From an uncultured Burkholderiales bacterium (lineage in GTDB: Bacteria; Pseudomonadota; Gammaproteobacteria; Burkholderiales; Burkholderiaceae_C), in NCBI GenBank assembly GCA_966252435.1, contig CBINPE010000033.1, forward strand, positions 1-38,547: 38,547 nucleotides of DNA, given 5' to 3'. The stretch's first letter is position 1; each line of letters opens with the position of its first letter. The notes under the pieces are model-generated. The model saw only the letters and a program-made list of their open reading frames with translations, did not search any database and was not told the origin of the DNA. Below, piece by piece: positions 5,706-38,484 of the stretch. A program made the translations under genes and the position numbers.

Positions 5706-6059
5706 ATGCTGAACATCAAGACGCTCGTGAGCACCGGCCTGGCCCTGATCTGTGTTGCAGGCATCGCGCAAGCGGCCACCCCCGCCAAGGCAACCGCCAC
5801 GCCGGCCGCTCAAACCGAGGTGCAGCCTGCCAAGGCCGCCGCTGCCGATGCCACTACCGCCGGCGCGCAAGATGTGAAGACCACCGATTCTGCAAAGCCG
5901 GCCAAACCCGCCAAGCCTGCCCAGGCCAAGCACAAGGCCGAAGGCGAGACGCCCGTGGGCCTGAAGACCACGCCGGCGGATGCCAAGTCCAAGCCCGCCG
6001 CTGCGCCGGGCGCCACGACCGCCACGCCTGCGGCCGACGCAACCAAGGCCACCCAGTGA
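5706..6059 (+). CDS. Small secreted low-complexity Ala/Lys/Pro/Thr-rich protein (hypothetical)
   Basis: ATG at 5706 gives a Sec-type signal peptide (MLNIKTLVSTGLALICVAGIAQA). A roughly 95-aa tail follows, rich in A, K, P, T with repeated PAKPAKPAQAK. A strong terminator lies downstream. Confidence 0.55.
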   Translation: MLNIKTLVSTGLALICVAGIAQAATPAKATATPAAQTEVQPAKAAAADATTAGAQDVKTTDSAKPAKPAKPAQAKHKAEGETPVGLKTTPADAKSKPAAAPGATTATPAADATKATQ

Positions 6060-6100
6060 GGCAAGTCACGCCCCCACGGGCGTTGAGATGACTGTCGCGC

Positions 6101-6150
6101 AAGGCCGGGGCATCCGCCCCGGCCTTGGCGCGTTTCCGTTTTCCGTTGTT
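6101..6150 (+). terminator. Rho-independent terminator (10-bp GC stem aaggccgggg/ccccggcctt followed by a T-rich tract)
   Basis: Read directly: stem 6101-6110 / 6117-6126, loop catccg, then ggcgcgtttccgttttccgttgtt. Confidence 0.7.
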
Positions 6151-6227
6151 GTCCGTGGTTGGAAGGATGGGGGCGTTCACGCCGGCTGCCGGCGGCCCCA
6201 TCCCGCTCAACGCCGATAAGGCACTTC

Positions 6228-6596
6228 TCAGGCCCGCACACCCCCGATGGGCACGCTGCGCGGCACCTGACGCGCGAGCCAGCGCAGACCGCGCCGCAGC
6301 ACACGGCTTGCGGTCAGGGGCGGCTCCAGCAGCTCGAAGCGGGCCTCGGGCCAGCCCTCGATCACCACCTGGCAACCGGCCGGCAGGAACACCCGCTCGC
6401 CGGCGGACACCCAGATGTCCGAGGGCAGGAGACTGTTGCCGCGACGCGCGGTCAGCGTCAGCCAAGCGCGGCCCTCTCTCACCTTGAACTCACGCCCCCC
6501 CCTGCCGATGCGCAGGGTGATGGCCTCGCCGGCCGGCAGGGACCAGACCGAAGACGCATCAGACTGTTGCATATTTCTCATCAATTGGGTTTCCAT
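6228..6596 (-). CDS. DUF2917-like small protein (hypothetical)
   Basis: ATG (complement of 6594-6596) preceded by AAGGAAAG. 122 aa with a recurring W/G pattern (…REGRAWLTL…VIEGWPEARF…) that I recall from DUF2917 proteins, which usually sit divergent to a LysR gene, as here. Confidence 0.55.
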   Translation of the reverse strand: METQLMRNMQQSDASSVWSLPAGEAITLRIGRGGREFKVREGRAWLTLTARRGNSLLPSDIWVSAGERVFLPAGCQVVIEGWPEARFELLEPPLTASRVLRRGLRWLARQVPRSVPIGGVRA

Positions 6597-17722: not shown

Positions 17723-18061
17723 GGAAGTCCCCTTTCGTTTTTCTTCATGACTCAAAACTAGGTGCCGTTACAGCCGGGGACGGCGGACGGCCAGGGCACG
17801 GAGAACGGGCATTACCCGGCACCAGCACCGCCTCGTCGCACCATGTGCATCGACAAGGCCTGCGCCGGCTGGAGGCAAGCAAGAACCCCGGCGGGCTGAC
17901 CGCGCGGGCCATCCCCGCTGACGGGCCGCCCGGCACGCGCCCCAGCCCGTCCGCAACGCGCCTCCCTGACGCGAACCGGGTGGGGCCGAAGGCGACGCCC
18001 GTGGCGTCCGCATCCGGCGGGTGGTCTTTCGACCGTCTTCACTGCGAGGAGACAGGTATGT

Positions 18062-18130
18062 CTGTCAGGAAGGATTCGAACCTTCGACCTACGTCTTTCC
18101 AGGACGTTGCTCTACCCAGCTGAGCTACAG
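18062..18130 (-). pseudogene. tRNA-like fragment / pseudo-tRNA
   Basis: The minus strand reads CTGTAGCTCAGCTGGGTAGAGCAACGTCCTGGAAAGACGTAGGTCGAAGGTTCGAATCCTTCCTGACAG. D-, anticodon- and T-arms are canonical, and the anticodon loop is CTGGAAA. The 3' acceptor strand CTGACAG has no complementary 5' strand. Instead it can pair with a downstream hairpin, gacag-gtatgt-ctgtc at 18051-18066. Confidence 0.4.
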
Positions 18131-18194
18131 TGGTGGCACCCCGGGAATCGAACCCGGCATCTCCTTGTGCAGGAGCCCCTCTCCAGAGGGCGCC
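18131..18194 (-). pseudogene. 64-nt tRNA-like minihelix with encoded CCA, not a canonical tRNA
   Basis: The minus strand reads GGCGCCCTCTGGAGAGGGGCTCCTGCACAAGGAGATGCCGGGTTCGATTCCCGGGGTGCCACCA. Acceptor-like ends pair (GGCGCCC with GGGTGCC), and a T-arm (CCGGG-TTCGATT-CCCGG) and CCA are present. The segment is about 10 nt too short to hold both D- and anticodon arms. It abuts the previous fragment. Confidence 0.35.
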
Positions 18195-18340
18195 GTTTCA
18201 GAACCCCACACCTTCAGGTGGCATGCCCCCAGCCGACCAGGACCGAATCCCGGGACCAGGCGCACCGGCGGGGCGGACGATCGTCCTAACCCCTGGCCTG
18301 TGAACGTGAAGGCGCATCAGGTTCCAAACTTGTCGCCCGC

Positions 18341-18916
18341 CTAACTCAGGCGGGATCCCTTGGGCAGGCGAGCCGCCAGCCACTCGTGCACGTCAGCCCG
18401 GATGTGCCTGCCTTCGAGCAGGAAGTTCTCGAAGCGGCTGGGCACATAAGGCAGGTACAGCAAGGGCATGCCGGCTTCCTCCGGGGTGCGGTCGGCCTTG
18501 CGTCCGTTGCACGGGCCGCAGGCCGACACCAGGTTCATCCAGCTCCAGCGGCCGCCGCGCGACTCCGGCAGGATGTGCTCGCACTGCAGCTCGCGCTCGG
18601 CAAAGCGCTGGCCGCAATAGGCACAGGTGAAACGGTCGCGGCGGAACAGCTTGAGGCTGCTAAACACCGGCACGATGTCGAACAGGTTGATTTGCGACGC
18701 ACCCGACAGGGCGATGATGGGATGGATCTCGATCACCGACTGACGGCCGGTGGCCGCGTTCCATCCGCCGCGCAGCGTGCACAAGGGGCCCGCGCCGTCG
18801 ACCCACGCCACCGCGTCGCGTGCGTAGTGCAAGGCGGCCTGTTCGCGGGTGATCCACGCTTGCGGCGTGCCCTGGATGTCGAGTTGCAGCACATGGGTGT
18901 GTGATTCAGGTTGCAT
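18341..18916 (-). CDS. HNH endonuclease family protein
   Basis: Start at MQPESHTHVLQLD (complement of 18914-18916), preceded by a strong AAGGAGG. C-terminal HNH zinc-finger signature (CAYCGQRF…EHILPESRGG…NLVSACGPCNGRKADR). The TAG stop lies inside a hairpin (cccgcc-tgagtta-ggcggg). Confidence 0.8.
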   Translation of the reverse strand: MQPESHTHVLQLDIQGTPQAWITREQAALHYARDAVAWVDGAGPLCTLRGGWNAATGRQSVIEIHPIIALSGASQINLFDIVPVFSSLKLFRRDRFTCAYCGQRFAERELQCEHILPESRGGRWSWMNLVSACGPCNGRKADRTPEEAGMPLLYLPYVPSRFENFLLEGRHIRADVHEWLAARLPKGSRLS

Positions 18917-18969
18917 GGGTTGCCCTCCTTTCTGCGGGCGATCGGTGGTGTCGATGCCATGCGCTTGGG

Positions 18970-19040
18970 GGTGACCGACCGGAGTCGAACCGGTACCTGT
19001 GGATTCACAGTCCACGGCTCTGCCATTGAGCTACGGCCAC
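18970..19040 (-). tRNA. tRNA-His (anticodon GTG)
   Basis: Minus-strand GTGGCCGTAGCTCAATGGCAGAGCCGTGGACTGTGAATCCACAGGTACCGGTTCGACTCCGGTCGGTCAC + C. The acceptor stem contains one G•U pair. Anticodon loop CTGTGAA. Position -1 is T rather than the usual encoded G. Confidence 0.8.
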
Positions 19041-19076
19041 ACCCAAGCACACGGGTGGTTGAACAAAGAAGAAAAG

Positions 19077-19152
19077 TGGTCTCGGCGGCAGGGCTCGAAC
19101 CTGCGACCCCGTGCGCCCAAGGCACGTGCGCTCCCAACTGCGCTACACCGAG
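19077..19152 (-). tRNA. tRNA-Pro (anticodon TGG), CCA encoded
   Basis: CTCGGTGTAGCGCAGTTGGGAGCGCACGTGCCTTGGGCGCACGGGGTCGCAGGTTCGAGCCCTGCCGCCGAGACCA. Clean cloverleaf. Confidence 0.9.
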
Positions 19153-19168
19153 ATGAAACAGGACAAAC

Positions 19169-19253
19169 TGGTCCCCTCGGTCCGAGTCGAACGGACATGC
19201 CTTGTGGCCACGGCTTCTGAGACCGCTGCGTCTGCCAATTCCGCCACGAGGGG
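19169..19253 (-). tRNA. tRNA-Leu (anticodon CAG), class II with long variable arm, CCA encoded
   Basis: CCCCTCGTGGCGGAATTGGCAGACGCAGCGGTCTCAGAAGCCGTGGCCACAAGGCATGTCCGTTCGACTCGGACCGAGGGGACCA. Confidence 0.9.
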
Positions 19254-19285
19254 ATGAATGAATGAATAAATCAGCGAATGAACAC

Positions 19286-19361
19286 TGGTCTCGGTGGCAG
19301 GGCTCGAACCTGCGACCCCATGCTCCCGAAGCATGTGCGCTACCAGCTGCGCCACACCGAG
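19286..19361 (-). tRNA. tRNA-Pro (anticodon CGG), CCA encoded
   Basis: CTCGGTGTGGCGCAGCTGGTAGCGCACATGCTTCGGGAGCATGGGGTCGCAGGTTCGAGCCCTGCCACCGAGACCA. Confidence 0.9.
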
Positions 19362-19371
19362 AAAAAGAAAC

Positions 19372-19448
19372 TGGTGCCCCGTGCACGATTCGAACGTGCG
19401 CCCCCCGGCTTCGTAGACCGGTGCTCTCATCCGCTGAGCTAACGGGGC
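19372..19448 (-). tRNA. tRNA-Arg (anticodon ACG), CCA encoded
   Basis: GCCCCGTTAGCTCAGCGGATGAGAGCACCGGTCTACGAAGCCGGGGGGCGCACGTTCGAATCGTGCACGGGGCACCA. Confidence 0.9.
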
Positions 19449-19469
19449 AGAAAAAAGAAAGCCATCATC

Positions 19470-19545
19470 TGGCGTCGCGTGCGGGATTCGAACCCGCGTT
19501 CCCGGAGTGAAAGCCCGGCGTCCTGGTCCCCTAGACGAACGCGAC
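19470..19545 (-). tRNA. tRNA-Glu (anticodon TTC), CCA encoded
   Basis: GTCGCGTTCGTCTAGGGGACCAGGACGCCGGGCTTTCACTCCGGGAACGCGGGTTCGAATCCCGCACGCGACGCCA. The D-arm (GTCTAG…AGGAC) resembles the E. coli tRNA-Glu arrangement. Confidence 0.9.
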
Positions 19546-19713
19546 AGAACGAAAAACTCCCATGACGGTTGTGCTCCAGCGCGAGTGCGGGTGACCCGCC
19601 CAGCGCCCTCGCTGCACGATGCCGATCTGTCCGGCAGCGCACATCCCGGCCACCCCGTGCTGAAGGGGGCTTGGCTCGACCGTGTGCTCGAACACACCCG
19701 TCATGAGACTGTT

Positions 19714-19789
19714 TGGAGCGGACACCGGGTCTCGAACCCGGGACCTCGACCATGGCGTGGTCGCGCTCTACCTGCTGAGCCATGTCCGC
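19714..19789 (-). tRNA. tRNA-Gly(GCC)-like with an atypical anticodon loop (ACGCCAT, i.e. A32-C33 instead of U33), CCA encoded
   Basis: GCGGACATGGCTCAGCAGGTAGAGCGCGACCACGCCATGGTCGAGGTCCCGGGTTCGAGACCCGGTGTCCGCTCCA. Perfect acceptor stem, U73, canonical 76-nt cloverleaf. Only positions 32-33 deviate from the usual loop. Confidence 0.65.
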
Positions 19790-23859: not shown

Positions 23860-26745
23860 TCAGGGGTTGGCCATGACGCTGAAGAAGTCCACGGGATAGA
23901 CCATCTCGTAGCCGTAGAAGCCGTAGCTCTGCGTGTTGGCGCCCACCTGCATGGTGTTGAACTCGTTGTGGGACCGCGAGGCCAGCGTGGCCCAGGTCGG
24001 CCGGGTGTCGTACCACTCGGGGTGCGGGACCGCCCCGACGGCCAGGCGTTGGCGGTACAGGCGGTCCAGGTAGGCCAGCGGGTAGTCCAGCAGGGTGTGG
24101 CCGCCGGAGTAGGTGCGGGTGACCTCGGAGTACGCGAACCCGATGTTGTTGTCGACGTAGCCGTACTTGACCACGTAGTTCATGGTCTGGAACAGCATGT
24201 CCTCGATGGTGGGGTACGGGATGCCTGCCCCCTTGCCAGCGGCCGCCATCAGCTTGTCCTGCTCGTAGAACTTGATGACGTTGGACAGCAGCGGCCCGGC
24301 CATCCAGGGGTTGGTGCCGTTCGCCCCCGCCACGCCGTTGCTGTTGTCCATCAGGGTCATCGTCCAGTAGCCCGTGCCCTGGCTGGCGTTGTTGACGCCG
24401 ATCACGGCGGAGCTCACGGTGCGCGTGGCCGGGTTGTAGCCCACGTGGTTGAGCGGGGTCTGCCACCACTGGATGAGGTGGTTGACCAGCTGCCCGTTGA
24501 CCGTCTTGTGGTAGTTGGCGTCGCCCGTCACGCGCACGTACTCGTTCATGACGTACAGCGGCCAGCCATAGTCCCGCTCGGCCTCGCGGTACTGCGAGAC
24601 ATCGAAGGGCGTCTTGAAGAAATACGGCGTGACGTGCTTCCACCAGTTGGCGATCTCGGTCAGAACCTCCAGCGAGCGCTTGTCGCCCGTCAGCAGGTAC
24701 AGGTCGCTCAAGCCGCTCACGTGGGCATGACCCCAGTGCATGTTGCGCACCTGGTGGTCTTCGTTGTTGTGCCCCTGCGCATGGATCTCGCCGGCAGGCT
24801 GCTGGCCCATGGCCTGCCAGGCGGCCGCCGTCTCCCAGTAGCCGCTGCGCGGACCGTGGGCCACGTCGATGTCGGCGAAATGGCGGGTGCTGATCTCGCC
24901 CAGCTGGAACCAGCGCTGCTCGCCCGTGCGGACGAATTCGTGCAGGAAGGCGTTCGCGCCGATGTGCGTGTCGTTGTAGAAGGCCGGGATGCGCACGCCA
25001 TTGACGACGTCGTTCCAGCCCGCGCGCAGGCGGTCACCGTAGTCGCGCCAGCCGAACATCGTGGCGTCGCCGCCGAGGTCGTCGGGGTCGTTGCGCGTCA
25101 CGCTCTGGGGCGTGGGCTGCTCGATGCTGGGAATGTAGATGTCCTTCAGCAGCATGGCGCTGTAGCCGGTGTTGGTGTTCGGGTTGCCCACGGTGATGTC
25201 GCCGAAGACGCCGGAGCTGGCATACCAGGACGGCGCGGCCGTCAGCTCCAGGCGGTGGCGCTGGTAGCCCTTGTTGAGGTCGATGAGGGCTGAGGTGGCA
25301 GCTTGCGTGTCACCGAAGGCGAAGCGCAGCTGGTGCGTCTTGGCCCCGCCCGGACGGGTGAAGTAGAAGCTGTTGGGGCGCTTGTAGCGCGTGCCCGACT
25401 GGGCTGGCACGGTCGTGTCCGCGGCCCCGCCGAGCGAGCGCTCGGCGAACAAGGCGGCAGTGAGCGTGTGGTCCTTGACGTTGAGCTCGATCGGGTACTG
25501 CTGCCAGAAGTCCCGCACCATCAGGCTCAGGTGGCGCGCGCCGCTGTCCAGCGCCAGCCAACCCGGTGCACGCAGGCCGCTGCCCACACCCGTGTAGCTG
25601 AACGTGTTGCCCTGGTCATCACCGTTGTCGAAGATGAACTGGCCGTTCTGCAGGAGATAGTGCTCACCGCTGACCGTGCCGCTGGCGCTGGCGTCCTTGT
25701 CCAGGCCGAAGCGGTACTGGGCCGGCGTGTCGGCCAGGTAGTTCCAGCGCAGCCCATAGCCGCGCGCTGCGAAGGCCAGTGGGGACCCCGCCGGATGGGC
25801 TGCATCGACATCGGCCTCCGCCCGGTCGTCGATGACGGTGAAGTCGATGTCGAGCTTGTCGGAGCCTGCATAGGCGGCATAGCGCACCAGGTACTTGATG
25901 AGCGTCGCGCCGCTGCTGTTGGTCAGCGCACCGCGCGCACGGATGACCGCGCGCACCGGCCCTTGCTCCTCGACCGTGATGTCGGGGTTGGCCGCCTGGC
26001 TGGCGGTGTACTGGACGCCGTCGGCGTTGACCATGAAGAATTCGCCCGCGCCGAGCACCTGCTCGCCGGCGTCGAAGACACCGTTGTGATCGGCGTCGCG
26101 CCATAGGGCGGTGACCAGGCCGCGCGCATTGAGCACGAAGCGGATGGCGCCGGTGTCCACGGTGGTGTTGCCGCTGGCCTGGGCCACGCTCACCCCGCGC
26201 GGCACGGCAGCGCGCACCACGCTGCCGCCGTAAGCGAGACGGTAGTTCTTGGCGGCACCCACGTCGGTGACGAACTGCACCAGGGCCGACTTGACGGACC
26301 CGTCCGGCCAGGACGCCAGGGTGTCGATCTGCGAAGGCACTTCCTGGGCACCATCACCGGTCTCGAGCCGGACGTTGGCCAGCGAGCGCAGTGCCCCCTG
26401 GGGGAAGGGGATGCCGCTGCGCACAGGGATAGAACCTGCCGTTGGCGCTGCAGCCAGCGTGAGGGGAATCACGCCTGCATTGGCAGCAGGTGCGGGGGCG
26501 GTCCCAGGGCCCAGGCCGCCACCCGTACTGCCACCGCCACTGCTGCCGCCGGTCCCGGTGCCTCCGCCTGCGCCGCTGCCGTTCCCATTGCCACTGCCGT
26601 TCGGAGAAGTCGTGCCTCCCGCGGAGGCTGCCGGCCCGTTGGCCTCCGTGCCGTCGGAGTTGCAGCCGGCCCCGGCACCCAACATCAGCATGGCCAGCAA
26701 CCACGCCCCCAACCGGCCTACACCCCCGAACGAGGACGACTTCAT
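23860..26745 (-). CDS. Large secreted lipoprotein (about 960 aa) with a Gly/Ser/Asn-rich linker; putative carbohydrate-active enzyme of unknown family
   Basis: Start at MKSSSFGGVGRLGAWLLAMLMLGAGAGC, preceded by GGAG. A low-complexity linker (GNGNGSGAGGGTGTGGSSGGGSTGGG) is followed by about 850 aa of globular sequence with His/Trp/Tyr-rich conserved-looking blocks (…HWGHAHVSGLSDLYLLTGD…, …GYWTMTLMD…). The family was not recognised from sequence alone. Confidence 0.8.
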   Translation of the reverse strand: MKSSSFGGVGRLGAWLLAMLMLGAGAGCNSDGTEANGPAASAGGTTSPNGSGNGNGSGAGGGTGTGGSSGGGSTGGGLGPGTAPAPAANAGVIPLTLAAAPTAGSIPVRSGIPFPQGALRSLANVRLETGDGAQEVPSQIDTLASWPDGSVKSALVQFVTDVGAAKNYRLAYGGSVVRAAVPRGVSVAQASGNTTVDTGAIRFVLNARGLVTALWRDADHNGVFDAGEQVLGAGEFFMVNADGVQYTASQAANPDITVEEQGPVRAVIRARGALTNSSGATLIKYLVRYAAYAGSDKLDIDFTVIDDRAEADVDAAHPAGSPLAFAARGYGLRWNYLADTPAQYRFGLDKDASASGTVSGEHYLLQNGQFIFDNGDDQGNTFSYTGVGSGLRAPGWLALDSGARHLSLMVRDFWQQYPIELNVKDHTLTAALFAERSLGGAADTTVPAQSGTRYKRPNSFYFTRPGGAKTHQLRFAFGDTQAATSALIDLNKGYQRHRLELTAAPSWYASSGVFGDITVGNPNTNTGYSAMLLKDIYIPSIEQPTPQSVTRNDPDDLGGDATMFGWRDYGDRLRAGWNDVVNGVRIPAFYNDTHIGANAFLHEFVRTGEQRWFQLGEISTRHFADIDVAHGPRSGYWETAAAWQAMGQQPAGEIHAQGHNNEDHQVRNMHWGHAHVSGLSDLYLLTGDKRSLEVLTEIANWWKHVTPYFFKTPFDVSQYREAERDYGWPLYVMNEYVRVTGDANYHKTVNGQLVNHLIQWWQTPLNHVGYNPATRTVSSAVIGVNNASQGTGYWTMTLMDNSNGVAGANGTNPWMAGPLLSNVIKFYEQDKLMAAAGKGAGIPYPTIEDMLFQTMNYVVKYGYVDNNIGFAYSEVTRTYSGGHTLLDYPLAYLDRLYRQRLAVGAVPHPEWYDTRPTWATLASRSHNEFNTMQVGANTQSYGFYGYEMVYPVDFFSVMANP

Positions 26746-27088
26746 CAGCATCTCCATACAACCTACAACCGCCCGCGCTGCAAGAGCATCGGGAACATCT
26801 TGGCAACCGCGCTGCGTAGCAAGACATGGCACGAGCCGATGAACTTGCCCTGCCTCGTCGCCGTTGCAGGATAGAGTAAATTCAGCCTAAAGCCAGGTTC
26901 ATTTCAATTCTTAACACCGCAACAGCGACGGTGGCTCCTTACAAAGAATTGCACACACTTCATCCACCCGGCAGGAGGCCAGAATGCCTCGATGGCGGCC
27001 CGGGCACGCAAATGGTCACCGTTTGATACGGGCCTGCAGACAGGCTCTTCCATAATGCGCCCTGCGTCATCCAAAACCTGTCCCCGTC

Positions 27089-27841
27089 ATGATCCCTGCC
27101 CTCCCCGGAGCCACCGAGTCGGTGCGCCAGGCCCTCCAGGCCCTGGTGACGGATCTCGGTGCCCAGGCGGGGCCTGCCTTCGTCGGCCTGGTGCTGTATG
27201 GCGGGCTGGCGCGGGGGCGCTACCGGCCCGGACGCAGCGACGTCAACGTGGTCGTGCTGCTGGACCCCGCGGATGCCGCCATGCTCAAGGCCATCGCACC
27301 CGCCTTGCGCCAGGCCCGCCGTGCGGCGGCCGTCGACGCGCTGCTGATGACGCCGGCCGAGGTGCCACTGGCCGCGCTCGACTTTCCCACCAAGTTCCTC
27401 GACATCCAACACCACCACGTGGTGCTGCATGGCAGCGGGGATCCCTTCCAGAACCTCGCCCTGCCGCGCGCGGCCGTGCAGCGGCGCATCGCGCAGTCGC
27501 TGCGCAACCTGCTGCTGCGCCTGCGTCACCGCTACCTCACCATGGTCGACGAGCCGCAAGGCCTGCACACGGCCCTGGCCGGCATGGCACGTCCGCTGGC
27601 CATCGAGTTGTCGGCGCTGCTCCAGGTGAGCGGGCACGCCGTGCCGGGGGAAGACCGCACCGCCGCGATCTATGCCGCTGCTGCCCGGACCTTGCAGCTC
27701 GACGCCACCGTGCTGTCCGAACTGGCCGGCCTGCGCGACGGTGCCTCCAGCGTCGATGCCCCCGTCCTGTTCGGCCGCGTGCTGGCCCTGCTGTCCCAGC
27801 TGGCTGACCGGGTTGACCAGCAAGCGGCAGGAGAGCCCTAG
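27089..27841 (+). CDS. Nucleotidyltransferase-domain protein (Pol-beta superfamily; ANT(3'')/AadA-like architecture)
   Basis: Motif GLVLYGGLARGRYRPGRSDVNVVVLLD matches the minimal nucleotidyltransferase pattern hG[GS]…[DE]h[DE]h, followed by a helical C-terminal domain. 250 aa. Only 43 bp separate it from the next gene. Confidence 0.75.
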   Translation: MIPALPGATESVRQALQALVTDLGAQAGPAFVGLVLYGGLARGRYRPGRSDVNVVVLLDPADAAMLKAIAPALRQARRAAAVDALLMTPAEVPLAALDFPTKFLDIQHHHVVLHGSGDPFQNLALPRAAVQRRIAQSLRNLLLRLRHRYLTMVDEPQGLHTALAGMARPLAIELSALLQVSGHAVPGEDRTAAIYAAAARTLQLDATVLSELAGLRDGASSVDAPVLFGRVLALLSQLADRVDQQAAGEP

Positions 27842-27884
27842 GGCCTGCCTCCGTCAGCCAAAGAAAGAAACGCAAAGGCGCACC

Positions 27885-28829
27885 GTGACCCTGCCCGTGC
27901 TTTCCGACCTGCTCAACCTGAGCGGTCCGGCCTTTCTGCTGTTCTACGCAGCCGCCTTCGTCGCCGTGCTGCTGCTGGGTCGTTGGATGAAACGGCACCT
28001 TCTTGCCACGGTGGCGCCCCTGAGCGGCGCGGGCCATCGCCTGTCGGCCTATGAGCTGGCGAGCCTGGCCGGAGGACCGGAGCGCGCCATCGCCACCGCG
28101 CTGACCCGCTTGTCGCACCAGGGCCTGCTGGCCCCCGCAACGGAGGGGCCTGCGGGCTTCGTGGTCCGGCAACCTCTGCCTGCACAGGCTCATGAGCTGG
28201 AGAAGATGCTTCACCGGGAAGTCGAGCTGCGGCGCGACAGCAACCCGCCCAGCCTGTTCATCCTGAGCCGCATCGCGCTGCACACCGGCCCCCTCGAACG
28301 CCTTGACGCGGCGCTGAGAAAAGGGGGCTGGCTGGTCGACCCGTCGAACGCACGCGTGAACGGCGTGCGCCTGCTGGTGACGCTCCTGTGGCTGGGCCTG
28401 ATCGCCCTGGGCGTGGCCAAGACCGGCATCGGCCTGTCGCGCGACAAGCCGGTGGGCATCCTGATGTTCTTCCTGCTCGTCACGGTGCTGACCGGCTGGT
28501 TCACACGTGGGCTGCCCCGGCGCACGCCCCGTGGTGACGCCTTCGTGAACGACCTGACGCGGCGCAACGCCGCCCTGCAGACCACTTTGGCGCGAGGCAG
28601 CCAGAGCCAGCACAACGTCTCCCACGAAGACCTGATCCTGGCGGTGGCCCTGTTCGGCACCCCCGTGCTGGCGAACGGGCCGCTGGCGTGGATGCTGCCG
28701 CCGCTGTCCACCGGGAGTGCCGGCAGCGGCGGCGGCGACAGCGGTTCGTCCTCGTCGAGCTGCGGCGGGGGTGGCGACTCCTCGTGCGGCGGCGGAGGCT
28801 GTGGCGGCTGCGGAGGAGGCTGCAGTTGA
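27885..28829 (+). CDS. TIGR04222-like membrane protein with Gly/Ser/Cys-rich C-terminal tail
   Basis: GTG at 27885 preceded by AAAGG. Three hydrophobic segments (AFLLFYAAAFVAVLLLG; VRLLVTLLWLGLIALGVA; VGILMFFLLVTVLTGWF). A YELASLAGGP motif is present. The C-terminus is …STGSAGSGGGDSGSSSSSCGGGGDSSCGGGGCGGCGGGCS, with 6 Cys in the last 25 aa. The positive-inside rule places the tail in the cytoplasm. Confidence 0.7.
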   Translation: MTLPVLSDLLNLSGPAFLLFYAAAFVAVLLLGRWMKRHLLATVAPLSGAGHRLSAYELASLAGGPERAIATALTRLSHQGLLAPATEGPAGFVVRQPLPAQAHELEKMLHREVELRRDSNPPSLFILSRIALHTGPLERLDAALRKGGWLVDPSNARVNGVRLLVTLLWLGLIALGVAKTGIGLSRDKPVGILMFFLLVTVLTGWFTRGLPRRTPRGDAFVNDLTRRNAALQTTLARGSQSQHNVSHEDLILAVALFGTPVLANGPLAWMLPPLSTGSAGSGGGDSGSSSSSCGGGGDSSCGGGGCGGCGGGCS

Positions 28830-28834
28830 AAACG

Positions 28835-29824
28835 ATGATGACGAACATAAAGAAGGCCGTGACGCAGACGATCTCGAAGGTCCTGCATGGGACCCCCGTG
28901 CCGCCCACGTCCACACCGGCCCCCTGCACCCCGCTCACGCTGGGGCTGGGCATCGGCTGGCGCCCCGAGCTGGCCTGGATGATCGAACGCCGGCCCGACC
29001 TCGGCTTCGTGGAGCTGCTCGTCGAGAACCACCTCGGTGGTGTGCCAGATGCCGTCCACCTGCTGCGCGAACGCGGCCTGACGGTGCTGCCGCACGGCGT
29101 GTCGTTGTCGCTGGGCAGCGCCGATCTGCCCGACCGCGAGCGCCTGCTCGCCCTGGCGAGCCTGGCCCGCCAGATGGATGCGCCGCTGGTCAGCGAGCAT
29201 CTGGCCTTCGTGCACGCGGGCGGGCACCACAGCGGTCACCTGCTGCCGCTGCCACGCACGCGCGAGGCACTGGAAACCGCCGTGCGCAACGTGCGGGCCG
29301 CCCAGGCGCTGCTGCCGGTGCCGCTGGCGCTGGAGAACATCGCCAGCCTGCTGGAATGGCCCGGCGCCGAGATGAGCGAGGCCGACTTCTGGGCCGAGCT
29401 GCTCGACCGCACGGGCGCCCTGATGCTGCTGGACCTCGAGAACCTGTACGCCAACCGCCGCAACCACGGCCTGGACGAGCGGGCTTTCATCGACCGCCTG
29501 CCGCTTGACCGCGTGGCCTATGTGCACGTCGCCGGGGGCGTGACCGACAGCGAAGGGCTCTACCACGACACCCATGCCCATCCCGTTCCCTCGCCCGTGC
29601 TGATGTTGCTGCAGCACCTGTGCGAACGCCACTGTCCGCCCGGCGTCCTGCTGGAGCGTGACGACCACTTCCCTGCGCCCGCCGCCCTGCACGACGAGCT
29701 CGACGCAATGGCCGCCCTGCTGAGTGCTGGGCGCGCCCCCCGCTCCCGCACGCCCCGCCCAGGCACAGCCCGTGGGACTGCGTCCGGCCAGGCCCATCCG
29801 CACCATGACGATGTCCCTGCGTGA
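28835..29824 (+). CDS. DUF692 family protein (multinuclear non-heme iron oxidative enzyme, MNIO; MbnB/TglH/HvfB/BufB-like)
   Basis: LTLGLGIGWRPELAWMIERRPDLGFVELLVENHLGG…VLPHGVSLSLGS…LVSEHLAF… is the characteristic DUF692 TIM-barrel N-terminus. ATG at 28835 lies 6 nt after the upstream stop. A roughly 30-aa N-terminal extension precedes the domain. Confidence 0.88.
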   Translation: MMTNIKKAVTQTISKVLHGTPVPPTSTPAPCTPLTLGLGIGWRPELAWMIERRPDLGFVELLVENHLGGVPDAVHLLRERGLTVLPHGVSLSLGSADLPDRERLLALASLARQMDAPLVSEHLAFVHAGGHHSGHLLPLPRTREALETAVRNVRAAQALLPVPLALENIASLLEWPGAEMSEADFWAELLDRTGALMLLDLENLYANRRNHGLDERAFIDRLPLDRVAYVHVAGGVTDSEGLYHDTHAHPVPSPVLMLLQHLCERHCPPGVLLERDDHFPAPAALHDELDAMAALLSAGRAPRSRTPRPGTARGTASGQAHPHHDDVPA

Positions 29825-30308
29825 TCAGCAGGCCGCGCTGCTGGCGGCCCTGGTGGCGAACGGCCCGGTGCCGCCCGGCTGGAACGCCGAGCGCGTGCAC
29901 GCCATGGCGCGCTCCCTGATGCAGAAGCGGGCACGCGGGATAGGACGCAGCTGGCCCACCCTGAAGGCCTTGCTGGGCGATGACTTCGATGCCCGCTGCG
30001 CCGCCTATGCCCGGGTCCAGCCGCTGCCGCAGCACGGCGGCCCACTGGCCGACGGTCGGCTGCTGGCGCGCTGGCTCGAGCGGCAGGGCCTTCCCCTGAG
30101 CGATGCGGTGCGTCGCCAGGCGCTGGCGGTGGACCAGCGCTTCTTCACCCATCATCCCGCCTGGCCAGCGCGCCGCTGGCCGAGCCTGCGCCTGTGTTGG
30201 CTGCCCCAGGCCCAGAGCTGGTTGCTGGCGCTGCACGTGCCGGGTTGGCTGGACCACCAGGTCCAGGTGCGCTGGCCACATGGCTGGCCCCATCCGCATA
30301 TCCGTTGA
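29805..30308 (+). CDS. DUF2063-like partner protein of the MNIO (MbnC/TglI/HvfC/BufC-like)
   Basis: Overlaps the DUF692 stop by about 20 nt, suggesting translational coupling. 167 aa starting MTMSLRDQQAALLAALVANGPVPPGW… Its position and size match DUF2063 partners. Similarity is judged by eye only. Confidence 0.7.
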   Translation: MTMSLRDQQAALLAALVANGPVPPGWNAERVHAMARSLMQKRARGIGRSWPTLKALLGDDFDARCAAYARVQPLPQHGGPLADGRLLARWLERQGLPLSDAVRRQALAVDQRFFTHHPAWPARRWPSLRLCWLPQAQSWLLALHVPGWLDHQVQVRWPHGWPHPHIR

Positions 30309-30348
30309 AATCTCACGAAAGCGCCGGGTGCCCTATAGTTCCGGCGCG

Positions 30349-32643
30349 ATGCGAATCCGGCCCCTCCTCTTCCTCGCCGCGGCGGCAGTGCTCGTGCCGG
30401 GGTTCTTGGCTGCCATCATTGCCATCGAGAAGGTCAAGGAGGCCGAGCGCGAAACCGCCCTGCGCGGGCTTCACGAGACCGTCCGGGCCACCGCCCTGCT
30501 GATCGACCGCGAGATCCAGGGCTCTCTGGGCACCCTTTCCGCGCTGGGCAATTCACCCCATTTGCAGAACGACAACCTCGCATCCTTCTACAAGGAAGCG
30601 CTCGCGGTGGACCACCAGCCCTACGTCTGGACCCTGCTGTTCGATGAGGAGGGCACCCAGAAACTCAACACCTCCCTGCCCTTCGGCACCCCCTCTCCCC
30701 CCGCCTCGCAGCAAGCGCGCGAGCGCGTCAGTCAGGTGCTGTCGACCGGACGCCCGCTGGTCACCGACCTGTTCATCGGCCCTGTCACCAAGCGGCTCAT
30801 CACCACTGTGTATGTGCGCGCCAAGGCCGCCTCGGCCCGGCCCTACGTCGTGGCCCAGGCTTTCGCGGTGGACCGCTGGCGCAAGACCGCGCTGCAACCG
30901 CGCGGCCAAGCCGACTGGATCGTGGCGGTCCTCGACCGCCAAGGCCGGTTCATTGCCCGCAGCCACCAGGCCGACAGCCTCCTGGGGCAATCCGCGCGGC
31001 CCGAGCTGGTGGCGGCGGCCGCCGCCGCCCCGGAGGGGCTGATCCGCCACCGGACCCTGGAAAACGTCGACGCCTACGACGCCTTCGTGCATTCCGAGCT
31101 GACCGGCTGGACCATCGCGGTCGCCGCACCGGTGGAAACGATCGAATCGTCGGCCTGGCAGGCCGTCTCATGGCTGGTGGCGGGGCTGTGCATGGCGCTG
31201 GGGGGCGCCCTGGCAGTGGCGGGGCTGATCGGCCGCCGCTTTGTGCAGGCCCTGGCCGTCACCTCGCAGGCCGCCGCAGCCTTGGGCAACGGCCGTCAGC
31301 CCGAGGTCAAGCCCACCACGGTGCACGAGATCAATGTGCTCAACGAGGCCTTGCTCGATGCCGGCCGCCTGCTGTCGGCCGAACGGCAGACACGGGAGCA
31401 GGTGGAAGCGGAGCGGGCCGAGCTGTTGCGCAAGGAGATCCTGGCGCGCGAGAAAGCCCAGAAAGAGAACGCGGCCAAGGACCAGTTTCTGGCCATGCTC
31501 GGCCACGAGTTGCGGAACCCCTTGGCGGGCATCGCCGGCGCCACCACCCTGCTGATGCGGGGCCGCTCCGACGAAGCCTCGCTGGCCCGCTACCTGGGCA
31601 TCATCGACCGCCAGAACCGCCACCTGACCCGCATCATCGACGACCTGCTCGAAGTCAGCAGGGCGATGTCAGGCAAGATCGTGCTCTCGCCAGCTCCGAT
31701 GGATCTGTCAGACTGCGTGAATCATTGCGTCGACGCCCTGCGCACCAGCGAGCGTGCCCAGGGCCATCCCCTGGTGATGGAGACCCAGGCGACCTGGGTG
31801 AACGCAGACGCCGTGCGGATGGAACAGATCGTGAACAACCTCGTGACCAATGCGCTGAAATTTTCCCCGCCGGGCGGAACGGTCTGGGTGCGCCTGCGGC
31901 CGACCGAAAGCCAGGCTGTCCTGGAAATCAGCGACGAGGGCGCGGGCATCGGTGCCGATCTGCTACCGCACGTGTTCGAGCCCTTCGTGCAGGGGCCCAA
32001 CCTGCCGGGCCGGTTGCAGAGCGGCCTGGGCATCGGGCTGGCGCTGGTCAAGCAGCTGGTGCGGCTGCACGGCGGCGAAGTCCATGCCCACAGCCAGGGC
32101 GAAGGGCTGGGCAGCACCTTCACCGTCACCCTGCCACGGATGGGGGCACAGGCCCCGTCCTCCACCATGGAGCCCCGGGTCAAGCCGTCAGGATGCCGCG
32201 TCCTGGTGGTGGACGACAACCCGGATGCCCGCCTGACCACGGTCGAGCTGCTGCGCAACATGGGCTATGAGGTGGAGGAAACCGCGGACGGCCCGCAGAC
32301 GCTGGCCCGGCTCACCGAGTGGCAGCCCGACGTCATCGTCATGGACATCGGCCTGCCTGGCCGGGACGGCTATGCGGTGGCGGCAGACCTGCGGCGCCGA
32401 CCGGAGCTCGACCGTGTGTCCCTGATCGCCCTGACGGGCTATGGCCAGGACCTCTCACGCCGCGAGGCGGTCGCCTCGAAATTCGACGACCACCTTGTCA
32501 AGCCCGTGAAACCGGATAGGCTCATGGCCACCATCGAACGACAATTGCGGACCCGGCAGCCGGGCAGGTCTCCCCCGCCAGAACCGCCGCTTGCCTCGCA
32601 GTCTCCTCGCCCCGCCGGGCTTCCTGACCGGACTTTGACCTGA
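30349..32643 (+). CDS. Hybrid sensor histidine kinase / response regulator (periplasmic sensor domain, HisKA, HATPase_c, C-terminal REC)
   Basis: Two transmembrane segments bracket a roughly 270-aa periplasmic domain. H-box FLAMLGHELRNPLAGI. ATP-binding N/G boxes (NLVTNALKFS…, GLGIGLALVKQLVRLHGG). A C-terminal receiver domain (RVLVVDDNPDARL…DVIVMDIGLPGRDG…). Confidence 0.9.
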   Translation: MRIRPLLFLAAAAVLVPGFLAAIIAIEKVKEAERETALRGLHETVRATALLIDREIQGSLGTLSALGNSPHLQNDNLASFYKEALAVDHQPYVWTLLFDEEGTQKLNTSLPFGTPSPPASQQARERVSQVLSTGRPLVTDLFIGPVTKRLITTVYVRAKAASARPYVVAQAFAVDRWRKTALQPRGQADWIVAVLDRQGRFIARSHQADSLLGQSARPELVAAAAAAPEGLIRHRTLENVDAYDAFVHSELTGWTIAVAAPVETIESSAWQAVSWLVAGLCMALGGALAVAGLIGRRFVQALAVTSQAAAALGNGRQPEVKPTTVHEINVLNEALLDAGRLLSAERQTREQVEAERAELLRKEILAREKAQKENAAKDQFLAMLGHELRNPLAGIAGATTLLMRGRSDEASLARYLGIIDRQNRHLTRIIDDLLEVSRAMSGKIVLSPAPMDLSDCVNHCVDALRTSERAQGHPLVMETQATWVNADAVRMEQIVNNLVTNALKFSPPGGTVWVRLRPTESQAVLEISDEGAGIGADLLPHVFEPFVQGPNLPGRLQSGLGIGLALVKQLVRLHGGEVHAHSQGEGLGSTFTVTLPRMGAQAPSSTMEPRVKPSGCRVLVVDDNPDARLTTVELLRNMGYEVEETADGPQTLARLTEWQPDVIVMDIGLPGRDGYAVAADLRRRPELDRVSLIALTGYGQDLSRREAVASKFDDHLVKPVKPDRLMATIERQLRTRQPGRSPPPEPPLASQSPRPAGLPDRTLT

Positions 32644-32667
32644 CCCTTGCCTGCCGAATAGAAAACC

Positions 32668-33039
32668 ATGACGACCAACGAAGACATCCGAATTGTTGTG
32701 GTGGACGACGATGTCGACGCCGCCGAGGTCCTGAAAGACCTGCTCGAGCTGGACGGCTACAGGGTCTGGGTGGCGCACGACGCCCTGCAGGCCCTGACAC
32801 TCGTCGCCCAGCACCAGCCGGACGGTGTGCTGCTGGACCTGGGCCTGCCGGACATGGATGGCCTGGAGGTGGCGCGGCGCCTGCGTGCCCAGGAGGGCGC
32901 CAAGCTCGTGCTGGTGGCCGTCACCGGACGCGGCAGCGAGGAGGACCGCATGGCGGCCGATGCCGCCGGCATCGACTACGTGCTGGTCAAGCCCCTCGAC
33001 ACCCAGCTGCTGGCACGCATCTTCCCGCCGGTGGGATGA
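32668..33039 (+). CDS. Single-domain response regulator (CheY-like receiver)
   Basis: IRIVVVDDDVDAAEVL…GVLLDLGLPDMDGLEV…LVAVTGRGSEED…VLVKP: canonical receiver-domain motifs. 123 aa. Confidence 0.9.
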   Translation: MTTNEDIRIVVVDDDVDAAEVLKDLLELDGYRVWVAHDALQALTLVAQHQPDGVLLDLGLPDMDGLEVARRLRAQEGAKLVLVAVTGRGSEEDRMAADAAGIDYVLVKPLDTQLLARIFPPVG

Positions 33040-33042
33040 GGC

Positions 33043-33058
33043 GGGGCCGGGGCCCCGC
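33043..33058. terminator. GC palindrome (ggggccggggcccc) between convergent genes; possible bidirectional terminator hairpin
   Basis: Read directly. It lies in the 27-bp gap between the response-regulator stop (33039) and the minus-strand gene end (33067). No clear U-tract. Confidence 0.35.
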
Positions 33059-33066
33059 ACCCACGC

Positions 33067-34254
33067 TCACCAGGCGCTCGAGCGGATCTGCGACTCCCAC
33101 TTTCCCCGCACCACCTTGTAGGCGGCCACGGCGCTGTAGGTCTGCTCGCCCTGCTCGTTCCACTTCATGTAGCCGGTCACCGGCACGTAGCTGTCGATCT
33201 GGCGCAGCGCCTCGGTGATCTTCTGCGGATCGGCCGAATCGACGCGGCGCATGGCCGCCGCCACCTGGTACATGGCGTCGTAGGTGTAGTGGCTGCCGTA
33301 GGCCACCTCCGTGTTGAAGCGGGCCTGGTACTTGCGGATGAAGCCGGTGCCGTTCGGGAAGTCCCGCGCCTCCAGGATCCCGGACGTGGCGAAGATCGGC
33401 ATGGGGTGCGCCTTCTTCAGCATCAGGGGTGATTTGAGGGTGTCACCCCCCAGCACCGGAATGTCCGTCAGGCCAGCGGCTTCCATGACCGGCAGCAGGG
33501 CCTCCACCTGGAAATCGTCCAGGGTCGTGATGAGGGCCTGCACCTGCAGCGCCTTCATGCGGGCCACCACGGCGCTGAAGTCCTTGGACTTGTCGCCGAA
33601 CGTCTGCTGCAGGACCACCTCCTTCTTGGCCGCCTGCAGCTGCGCCACGGCGCCGGCGGCAAGGTCCTTGCCATAGGGGGTTCCGTCGTCCAGCACGGCG
33701 AAGCGCGTGGCGTTGAAGCTCTCGACCGCGAAGCGGCCCATGGCCTTGGCCTGCAGGTTGTCATTGGCCACCAGGCGGAAGGTGGTGGGCAGCCCCAGGG
33801 CGGTGTACTTGGGGTTGGTGGAGATGGCCAGCTGCGGGATGTGGGCCTGCGCATACACCGGCGCGGCCGGAATGCTGACCCCCGAGTTGAGATGGCCGAT
33901 GACCACCGCCACCTTGGCGTCCACCAGTTGGTGGGCCACCTTCACGCCCTGCTCCGGGTTCGAGGCGTCGTCGACGGAGACGACCTCCAGCTTGACCGGC
34001 TTGCCGCGCAAGGTGAAGCCCGCCTGGTTCAGCTCCTCCACCGCCAGTATGACCCCGTTGAGCATGTCCTGCCCGCGTGCGGCGAGCTCCCCCGACAACG
34101 GCTGGGCCACGCCGATCTTGACAACCGCGGGCGCCCCCGGATCGCAAGCTTGCAACAGGCCGGCCAGCGCACAGGCTGACAGGCATGACAGCGCCCGCCG
34201 ACGTGTCAGGGTGGCGGTGTTCAGACCGGGGCGGGAAGAGGCGGTGGTATGCAT
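33067..34254 (-). CDS. ABC transporter substrate-binding protein, branched-chain amino acid (LivK/LivJ) family
   Basis: Start at MHTTASSRPGLNTATLTRRRALSCLSACALAGLLQAC, preceded by GGAG. A Tat-like RRRAL motif followed by a Cys suggests a lipoprotein. The body matches type-I periplasmic binding proteins (…KIGVAQPLSGELAARGQDMLNGVILAVEELN…). Confidence 0.88.
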   Translation of the reverse strand: MHTTASSRPGLNTATLTRRRALSCLSACALAGLLQACDPGAPAVVKIGVAQPLSGELAARGQDMLNGVILAVEELNQAGFTLRGKPVKLEVVSVDDASNPEQGVKVAHQLVDAKVAVVIGHLNSGVSIPAAPVYAQAHIPQLAISTNPKYTALGLPTTFRLVANDNLQAKAMGRFAVESFNATRFAVLDDGTPYGKDLAAGAVAQLQAAKKEVVLQQTFGDKSKDFSAVVARMKALQVQALITTLDDFQVEALLPVMEAAGLTDIPVLGGDTLKSPLMLKKAHPMPIFATSGILEARDFPNGTGFIRKYQARFNTEVAYGSHYTYDAMYQVAAAMRRVDSADPQKITEALRQIDSYVPVTGYMKWNEQGEQTYSAVAAYKVVRGKWESQIRSSAW

Positions 34255-38069: not shown

Positions 38070-38146
38070 GCCCGCGTAGCTCAGCAGGCAGAGCAGCCGC
38101 CTTGTAAGCGGCAGGTCGCGCGTTCGAGACGTCGCCGCGGGCGCCA
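38070..38146 (+). tRNA. tRNA-Thr (anticodon TGT) with an imperfect T-stem, CCA encoded
   Basis: GCCCGCGTAGCTCAGCAGGCAGAGCAGCCGCCTTGTAAGCGGCAGGTCGCGCGTTCGAGACGTCGCCGCGGGCGCCA. The acceptor, D- and anticodon arms are perfect. The T-arm pairs only 3 bp and has one extra nucleotide before the acceptor strand. Confidence 0.6.
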
Positions 38147-38243
38147 CCCACCAACACCAAGCCTCTGCGGAGCGAAAGCTCGAGAGGCGTAAATCGGCCG
38201 CAACGATTGGGCGGCACCGGAACCCGTCACCGGAACCATCCCT

Positions 38244-38321
38244 GGGGGTGTAGCTCAATTTGGGTAGAGCGGCCGCCTTGCAAGCGGCAGGTCGCAGGTT
38301 CGATCCCTGTCGCCTCCACCA
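38244..38321 (+). tRNA. tRNA-Ala (anticodon TGC), CCA encoded
   Basis: GGGGGTGTAGCTCAATTTGGGTAGAGCGGCCGCCTTGCAAGCGGCAGGTCGCAGGTTCGATCCCTGTCGCCTCCACCA. The Ala identity pair G3•U70 is present. Confidence 0.85.
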
Positions 38322-38326
38322 CACAT

Positions 38327-38402
38327 GCTCCGTTAACTCAGTGGCCAGAGTGCCGACCTGTCTCGTCGGAAGCCGCGGGTTCGAATCCCGCACGGGGCGC
38401 CA
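38327..38402 (+). tRNA. tRNA-Asp (anticodon GTC), CCA encoded
   Basis: GCTCCGTTAACTCAGTGGCCAGAGTGCCGACCTGTCTCGTCGGAAGCCGCGGGTTCGAATCCCGCACGGGGCGCCA. Discriminator G73. Confidence 0.88.
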
Positions 38403-38408
38403 GTCCAA

Positions 38409-38484
38409 GCCGTGATAGCTCAACCGGTAGAGCGCCAATCTGAAGAGTCGGGCGTTGGAGGTTCGAACCCTCCTCACGGAGCCA
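38409..38484 (+). tRNA. tRNA-Phe(GAA)-like, CCA encoded, with G1•A72 and A29•C41 mismatches
   Basis: GCCGTGATAGCTCAACCGGTAGAGCGCCAATCTGAAGAGTCGGGCGTTGGAGGTTCGAACCCTCCTCACGGAGCCA. Good D- and T-arms. The anticodon loop is CTGAAGA. Two stem mismatches lower confidence; it could be a pseudo-tRNA. Confidence 0.5.

Follow-up and report, generated by a model that had tools for sequence, protein, structure and literature searches.

The stretch of DNA considered here, 38,547 nucleotides (nt) from the forward strand of contig CBINPE010000033.1 of an uncultured Burkholderiales bacterium (assembly GCA_966252435.1), is referred to below in its whole length as the window and contains a compact cassette of three genes between positions 27885 and 30308. 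These encode a membrane protein of the TIGR04222 family that ends in a tail of glycine, serine and cysteine residues, an enzyme of the DUF692 family, also known as the multinuclear non-heme iron oxidative enzymes (MNIOs), and a protein whose predicted fold resembles that of known MNIO partners. We set out the evidence that the tail of the membrane protein may itself be the substrate of the MNIO and its partner.

TIGR04222 proteins have already been linked to MNIOs through genome analysis. In the survey of Leprevost et al. (Microb Genom 2025, PMC12452194) they account for 40% of the Cys-containing proteins that lack a signal peptide and whose genes immediately precede those of MNIOs; they carry Ser/Gly tails with interspersed Cys, their MNIO clusters contain no DUF2063 genes, and subsets of them were proposed to be probable MNIO substrates. 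Most members were found in Actinomycetota, the N-terminal part of the protein was suggested to help biogenesis, and the MNIOs linked to the family were placed close to the bufferin and oxazolin enzymes. A first-pass annotation of the window had presented the association and the tail as substrate, and had implied that they were novel, but both, and a partner outside DUF2063 as well, were published in 2025. The locus repeats the cassette type of that survey and is a good experimental candidate, not a discovery; what is new here is a strongly conserved nucleotidyltransferase-like gene that recurs directly upstream.

Organisation of the cassette

The three open reading frames (ORFs) lie on the + strand, run in the same direction and are tightly packed (Table 1), just as the first-pass annotation had drawn them. 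The coordinates of gene 1, whose start codon is GTG, agree with those that a second, independent caller assigned on a metagenome contig identical to this one. The ATG of gene 2 lies at 28835, where the independent caller prefers an in-frame TTG at 28826 that yields 332 amino acids (aa) and overlaps the stop codon of gene 1 by 4 nt; for gene 3 it prefers a start at 29772, but in alignments the homologues begin level with the MSL encoded at 29811. There are 43 nt before gene 1 and 5 nt (or the 4-nt overlap) between genes 1 and 2, and genes 2 and 3 overlap by 20 nt, so that no separate precursor gene fits inside the cassette and the earlier statement that it holds no small Cys-rich precursor is confirmed. 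When cassettes are compared, the MNIO core motif starts 2-20 nt past the TIGR04222 stop codon in most lineages, which again leaves no space for a precursor gene. This missing intergenic space is a stronger argument against a separate precursor than a search for small ORFs, which found no conserved small Cys-rich ORF near 24 cassettes but was noisy and provides only weak evidence: it used single-linkage clustering without composition correction, and gave one big junk cluster of Arg/Pro/Cys-rich alternative-frame ORFs.

A 56-aa Cys-containing ORF at 26904-27074 (-) was considered as a precursor and rejected, as it is not conserved. On the strand opposite the tail region and the MNIO gene runs a 531-aa ORF, 28211-29806 (-), with high third-position G+C, which was rejected as most likely a shadow ORF of the MNIO gene, of the kind common at about 70% G+C; the window has a G+C content of 68% and the cassette region 71%. 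A scan of 26500-33500 for promoters and terminators gave nothing above shuffled expectation.

The TIGR04222 protein and its tail

The first-pass annotation had pointed to TIGR04222, and the family model bears this out: gene 1 scores 138.4 bits with the NCBIfam model (cut-off 43, E = 2.8e-40) over the whole profile (1-229 of 229), and the protein has 1560 homologues at E <= 1e-3. Hydropathy and an AlphaFold2 model (predicted local distance difference test, pLDDT, 86.6; predicted template modelling score, pTM, 0.78) agree on long hydrophobic helices at residues 14-39, 156-185 and 191-207, matching the three transmembrane (TM) segments predicted earlier. A structured, soluble region of about 120 aa lies between TM1 and TM2, and two short helices follow TM3. 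A fourth hydrophobic stretch, at 250-270, is conserved and is modelled as a broken helix of 11+4 residues, not as a canonical span; the conserved hydrophobic segment before the tail reads LAVALFG…LxxLxPP. Residues 271-314 are predicted to be disordered, because their pLDDT is about 50.

The tail is as the first-pass annotation had quoted it. Its five Cys, at 293, 301, 306, 309 and 313, are the only ones in the protein and stand among Gly, Ser and Asp; four of them precede Gly, and the chain ends CGGCGGGCS. An alignment of 96 TIGR04222 homologues of about 300 aa shows G305, C306, G307 and G308 to be invariant and C309 and G310 nearly so, with CGGC inside the last 14 aa in 93 of them. As these homologues were collected by word index, which the tail itself could bias, the count was repeated on a tail-independent set of loci fetched through the partner or through the upstream nucleotidyltransferase-like gene. 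Terminal CGGC or CGG(G)CGG is present there in 24 of the 25 Cys-bearing tails, and 83 of the 103 tail Cys (81%) stand directly before Gly, so the Cys-Gly tail can be regarded as conserved. TIGR04222 proteins have on average 5.0 Cys in the tail versus 1.7 elsewhere.

The MNIO

Gene 2 was correctly assigned to DUF692 at first pass. It matches Pfam PF05114 (MbnB_TglH_ChrH) with 269.2 bits against a gathering threshold of 25 (E = 4.1e-80), covering positions 2-261 of 263, and also passes a xylose-isomerase-like TIM-barrel model (39.5 versus 31.1 bits). Among solved structures it is nearest to 3bww (E = 4e-31), followed by TglH (E = 1e-29). The motifs HG(V)SLSLG, SEHLAF, LALEN, LLDLENLY, VHVAGG, HDTH and LLERD align with identical residues in 3bww, TglH and MbnB, and their cores (HG, EH, EN, DxxN, HxAG, DTH, ERD) are kept in 20/20 TIGR04222-linked MNIOs. 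By the MbnB and TglH structures, we take the residues at these seven motifs to be the iron ligands (His, Asp, Glu and Asn), which are thus intact in gene 2.

Among the NCBIfam models, the nearest to gene 2 are BufB (NF050167), with 203.8 bits against a cut-off of 310, and HvfB (NF003818), with 170.9 against 360, followed far lower by ApyH, ChrH and MbnB, the last with 42 bits. In the alignment the ERD Asp falls on the ERDF of 3bww, which fits Asp249/Phe250 of FonB, in which Asp249 is the proposed catalytic base and Phe250 a neighbouring selectivity residue (PMC13097082). A lineage-specific N-terminal extension of about 35-45 aa (window 28835-28940; related locus L005, 5019-5160) contains a conserved K/R-A-V-T/S…S-K/R-V-L stretch. 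Neither the MNIO nor the partner has a hydrophobic signal (maximum 19-residue hydropathy 1.37 and 0.90), so any modification would have to take place in the cytoplasm.

The partner protein

The third gene had been called a DUF2063 partner from its size and position, and here the role and the fold stand while the family does not. Gene 3 has no hit at E <= 0.01, and with DUF2063 (PF09836) it scores 15.7 bits, below the gathering threshold of 27.2 (E = 0.018), over residues 8-73 (profile 2-66); two homologues match similarly weakly. Precomputed annotations list Pfam PF26136 ('SCO6045_C') for gene 3 and all listed homologues. Ten close homologues grew to 181 by profile search, and a whole-library scan gave 1143 cluster representatives.

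The AlphaFold2 model, built on 79 sequences (pLDDT 92, pTM 0.82), has five helices followed by a three-stranded sheet. Compared with solved structures it scores 9.6 with NGO1945 (3dee), 8.3 with TglI (8hci_C, second-best, 146 residues aligned) and 6.5 and 6.0 with MbnC (7dz9_C and 7tcr_C). Foldseek places MbnC and TglI on top at TM-scores of 0.46-0.48, with weak E-values, and a sequence search of the PDB with the partner returned nothing meaningful. Encoded directly after the MNIO gene, lacking a DUF2063 signature and related in structure to NGO1945 (3dee) and TglI, gene 3 has the features of a PME-type 2 partner. The actinobacterial partners (L008-L023, at about 6000-6330) are short: they match only the helical part, positions ~6-95 of 164, and lack the three-stranded sheet, which suggests that substrate docking may differ between lineages.

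Conservation of the cassette

A genome scan with a 10-sequence partner alignment returned 18 loci, from Hyalangium, a Gemmatales metagenome-assembled genome (MAG), 12 Nocardia, Antrihabitans, Rhodococcoides, Paractinoplanes and Herbihabitans. All 18, spanning Myxococcota, Planctomycetota and Actinomycetota, have the order TIGR04222, MNIO, partner on one strand, as do four more metagenome relatives (L024-L027), and the conserved gene order that the substrate proposal called for is therefore found across three phyla. These three are the sole genes common to all loci; neither a protease nor an exporter gene is conserved with the cassette in the partner-fetched loci or L024-L027. The family scores and the conservation in other genomes lie far beyond chance.

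Between the window and three relatives, identity is 38% for the membrane protein, 46-52% for the partner and 63-75% for the MNIO. A membrane protein that changes fastest beside a steadier MNIO is what would be expected of a substrate constrained mainly in short motifs. Two actinobacterial loci, L016 and L022, have two tandem TIGR04222 genes each, and the first copy in L022 lacks a Cys tail.

Orientation of the tail

The side of the membrane on which the tail lies decides whether a product would buffer periplasmic copper or work inside the cell. In the 96 homologues, the 15-residue flanks of the TM segments hold on average 8.2 Lys+Arg on the face that bears the large loop and the stretch after TM3, versus 3.2 on that of the N-terminus and the hairpin between TM2 and TM3, and the former face is the richer in 94/96. 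TM1 is uncharged or acidic in its N-terminal flank and basic in its C-terminal one (RWMKRH). Since there are no more than three true spans, this charge bias, from what is a crude topology method, would put the tail in the cytoplasm. Against this, the TM2-TM3 hairpin loop bears near-invariant Lys179 and Arg186, and the published account states a periplasmic tail, with no prediction method named (PMC12452194). The cytoplasmic tail of the first-pass annotation is accordingly favoured by the charge bias and by the missing fourth canonical span, while the basic hairpin loop and the published placement speak against it; on the predicted topology we favour a cytoplasmic tail, contrary to that placement.

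Neighbouring genes

The gene directly upstream encodes a 250-aa protein that falls below the threshold of Pfam NTP_transf_2 (PF01909; 18.5 versus 21 bits), departs from the Pol-beta-type motif G[GS]x9-13 D x [DE] and can be called 'nucleotidyltransferase-like' only; one homologue scores 20.9 bits with the MntA model, and a PDB sequence search with the alignment of the family returned nothing meaningful. The motifs GG…SD.N (SDxN in place of DxD/E) and FLDIQRHH are invariant in 9/9 sequences, and in all nine Asn thereby replaces the second catalytic carboxylate. The gene is recorded in the window, L005, L025-L030 and L032. It stands directly before the TIGR04222 gene in L005 and L025-L027, loci that do not share their more distant upstream genes, and it is 63-80% identical there, compared with 38-63% for TIGR04222; its conservation exceeds that of the membrane protein and of the partner and roughly equals that of the MNIO. 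A metagenome scan with the protein gave six loci, and TIGR04222 comes next in four of the five that have enough downstream sequence; where the contig allows, an MNIO gene follows TIGR04222, even at 32-33% identity. The gene is absent from the main text of the 2025 survey (PMC12452194). These linkages point to a recurrent accessory gene in this clade and its relatives, possibly a fourth component of the system.

Table 1. Position and basis of assignment of the cassette genes, the putative modified region and the adjacent genes (window coordinates)
Feature	Position	Strand	Basis or remark
Nucleotidyltransferase-like protein, 250 aa	27089..27841	+	Directly upstream of the TIGR04222 gene; motif GGLARGRYRPGRSDVN
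Gene 1, TIGR04222 membrane protein, 314 aa, putative substrate	27885..28829	+	TIGR04222 model, AlphaFold2, hydropathy
Gene 1, disordered C-terminal tail, residues 270-314, putative modified core	28692..28826	+	MLPPLSTGSAGSGGGDSGSSSSSCGGGGDSSCGGGGCGGCGGGCS
Gene 2, MNIO (DUF692) oxidase, 329 aa	28835..29824	+	PF05114
Gene 3, MNIO partner, 167 aa, DUF2063-like fold, PME-type 2	29805..30308	+	AlphaFold2, PF26136 annotation
Hybrid sensor histidine kinase (Cache-like sensor, HisKA, HATPase, receiver)	30349..32643	+	Pfam domains
Single-domain response regulator, co-directional with the kinase	32668..33039	+	PF00072, 86.6 bits

Downstream of the cassette, the hybrid kinase gene directly follows the partner gene in L005 and L024 as well, and not in L025-L027 or L006-L023; the response regulator is also conserved in L005 and L024. 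The kinase is therefore a possible regulator of the cassette, with a linkage confined to the closest relatives.

Elsewhere in the window, a 990-aa PcRGLX-like protein with a long Gly/Ser/Thr-rich linker near its N-terminus is encoded at 23860-26832 (-), divergently from the cassette; the domain takes its name from rhamnogalacturonan lyase. Eight tRNA genes (Ser-GGA, His, Pro-TGG, Leu-CAG, Pro-CGG, Arg-ACG, Glu, Gly-GCC) lie at 18060-19789 (-), and four more (Thr, Ala, Asp, Phe) at the end of the window, at 38070-38484 (+). Both arrays are dense and have no rRNA nearby, and the Ser tRNA of the first measures only 71 nt, although tRNAs of this type usually carry a long variable arm.

Is the tail a substrate?

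A gene order and a Cys-Gly tail that are conserved across phyla are what the tail-as-substrate model predicts. We put the probability that the TIGR04222 tail, not a free peptide, is the substrate of this MNIO-partner pair at roughly 0.55. MbnBC, TglHI and HvfBC form heterodimers, and the soluble MNIO and partner would do so likewise in the cytoplasm. The tail would be docked by the small β-sheet of the partner or by the hydrophobic segment that precedes the tail, and a di- or tri-iron site would oxidise the tail Cys with O2. FonB, HvfB and BufB install 5-thiooxazole on Cys, with products that bind copper, and a Cys-Gly pair is the preferred site of FonB (Gadgil et al. 2026, PMC13097082). Because the MNIO is closest to these enzymes, with their preference for Cys followed by Gly, 5-thiooxazole (minus 4 Da per Cys) would be the most likely product, although this specific chemistry is less certain than the substrate. 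The membrane would then carry a tethered cluster of soft ligands for a metal, probably copper, on a tail that either stays in the cytoplasm, which we favour, or moves to the periplasm. In this lineage the cassette would be accompanied by the nucleotidyltransferase-like protein and possibly by the hybrid kinase and its regulator.

Several points weigh against this proposal. A third of the genomes that carry TIGR04222 have no MNIO genes, and more than a quarter of the proteins have no C-proximal Cys (PMC12452194), which indicates that the family has a function independent of modification. The cassette of the Gemmatales MAG (L007, 3-869), otherwise complete, encodes a TIGR04222 protein with no tail Cys, and the CGGC motif could bind metal unmodified. 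Gene 2 lies below all equivalog cut-offs and is hence not a member of BufB or HvfB, whose chemistry cannot be confidently transferred to it, and the catalytic Asp of the TIGR04222-linked MNIOs is followed by Asp, Glu or Gly, where the Lys-Cys group has Phe. If the tail were periplasmic the enzyme would have to act before translocation, and we know of no precedent for this with the C-terminal tail of a polytopic protein. In the full-text literature to mid-2026 we found no experimental work on TIGR04222 proteins, including any demonstration of a modified tail.

The MNIO-less genomes, the proteins without C-proximal Cys and the Cys-free tail of L007 would all suit an alternative in which TIGR04222 is an accessory membrane component, for instance one that anchors, acts as a scaffold or binds metal at an unmodified CxxC, comparable with DoxX beside bufferin genes, while the MNIO-partner substrate is encoded elsewhere; CGGC is a plausible metal or redox site by itself. 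This is nevertheless unlikely in our judgement, for the order in 18/18 loci is that of precursor, MNIO and partner in bufferin and oxazolin clusters, the nearest MNIOs are known to prefer Cys-Gly pairs like those of the tail and no further gene is common to all loci; the noisy small-ORF search points the same way, and the one Cys-containing intergenic ORF of the window is not conserved. Alternatively, the tail could be the substrate of a different reaction, such as formation of an oxazolone-thioamide (MbnB), excision of the Cys beta-carbon (TglH) or a new cross-link between close Cys. An enzyme that scores below every equivalog cut-off leaves room for this, as do the near-equal distances to 3bww and TglH and the match of the partner to TglI over 146 residues, and MNIOs with PME-type 2 partners include the pearlin, aminopyruvatide and biphenomycin enzymes, which differ in their chemistry (PMC12452194). 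Yet the BufB and HvfB models score well above ApyH, ChrH and MbnB, the TIGR04222-linked MNIOs have been placed near the bufferin and oxazolin enzymes (PMC12452194), and the Cys-Gly pairs fit enzymes that form 5-thiooxazole, and we hold a different reaction to be distinctly unlikely.

It is harder still to see the membrane protein as a very large leader from which the modified tail is exported and cut off as a small Gly/Cys-rich metallophore, in the manner of a classical ribosomally synthesised and post-translationally modified peptide. The published periplasmic tail and the suggested part of the N-terminal region in biogenesis (PMC12452194) would agree with it, and the conserved LxPP segment before the tail could be a cleavage or recognition site; as both the charge bias and a count of only three canonical spans favour a cytoplasmic tail, and no protease or exporter gene is conserved beside the cassette, such a fate is very improbable. 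That the tail is a meaningless low-complexity run of GGC, AGC and TGC codons in a genome of 70% G+C might be supposed from the 71% G+C of the region and from the in-frame GGC-type indels by which tail length differs between close relatives. However, these indels keep the reading frame, the alignment of 96 sequences varies little or not at all in its CGGC columns, and the same tail with terminal CGGC occurs in named homologues from Microcystis, Microcoleus, Planctomycetota and Myxococcota; a tail shared with cyanobacteria and these phyla is therefore not a by-product of high G+C, and the conservation data effectively refute this explanation.

Within the preferred reading of the tail as substrate, a more elaborate version is conceivable but quite unlikely as a whole: the entire membrane protein would be modified and kept, its cytoplasmic heterocycle tail sensing metal or redox state in concert with the hybrid kinase and not serving as a secreted metallophore, while the SDxN nucleotidyltransferase-fold protein primes or regulates the process. 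If the tail is indeed modified, MNIOs would act on full-size membrane proteins, beyond small peptides, and bacteria would carry membrane-tethered heterocycle-based metal sites, a class that nobody has characterised. Its four genes, five Cys and full-length partner make the locus a compact candidate for testing this.

Comparison with known systems

In the methanobactin system (MbnABC) the substrate is a cleaved and secreted leader-core peptide and the product an oxazolone-thioamide, and MbnB is a distant relative of the MNIO described here. The TglHI pair of the 3-thiaglutamate pathway is nearer in structure, TglH being the second-closest solved MNIO and TglI the second-best structural match of the partner, but the reaction of TglHI removes the beta-carbon from one C-terminal Cys, previously added to a scaffold peptide, and nothing at this locus suggests a peptide-aminoacyl-tRNA ligase or a 3-thiaglutamate pathway.

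The captophorin systems, which make bufferins, oxazolin and fontiphorin (BufABC, HvfABC, FonABC), share with the cassette the order of precursor, MNIO and partner, the Cys-Gly pairs, the ERD motif and the nearest MNIO models. Their precursors are small secreted peptides or proteins with Sec signal peptides, whereas the counterpart here is a 314-aa polytopic membrane protein with no signal peptide; their partners are full DUF2063+RRE proteins (PME-type 1), whereas the partner here fails the DUF2063 model, which sets the locus outside the captophorin clusters.

The closest likeness is to the TIGR04222-MNIO-PME-type 2 clusters of the 2025 survey (PMC12452194), which have the same three components in the same order, the same Cys-rich low-complexity tail and the same substrate hypothesis. 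In both, the partner has no DUF2063 signature and an NGO1945/TglI fold, and the MNIO is near the bufferin and oxazolin enzymes. Compared with the actinobacterial cassettes fetched here, this locus has a full 160-aa partner with the three-stranded sheet, as in Myxococcota and Planctomycetota, and it differs from the clusters of the survey in its nucleotidyltransferase-like gene upstream and its hybrid kinase and regulator downstream.

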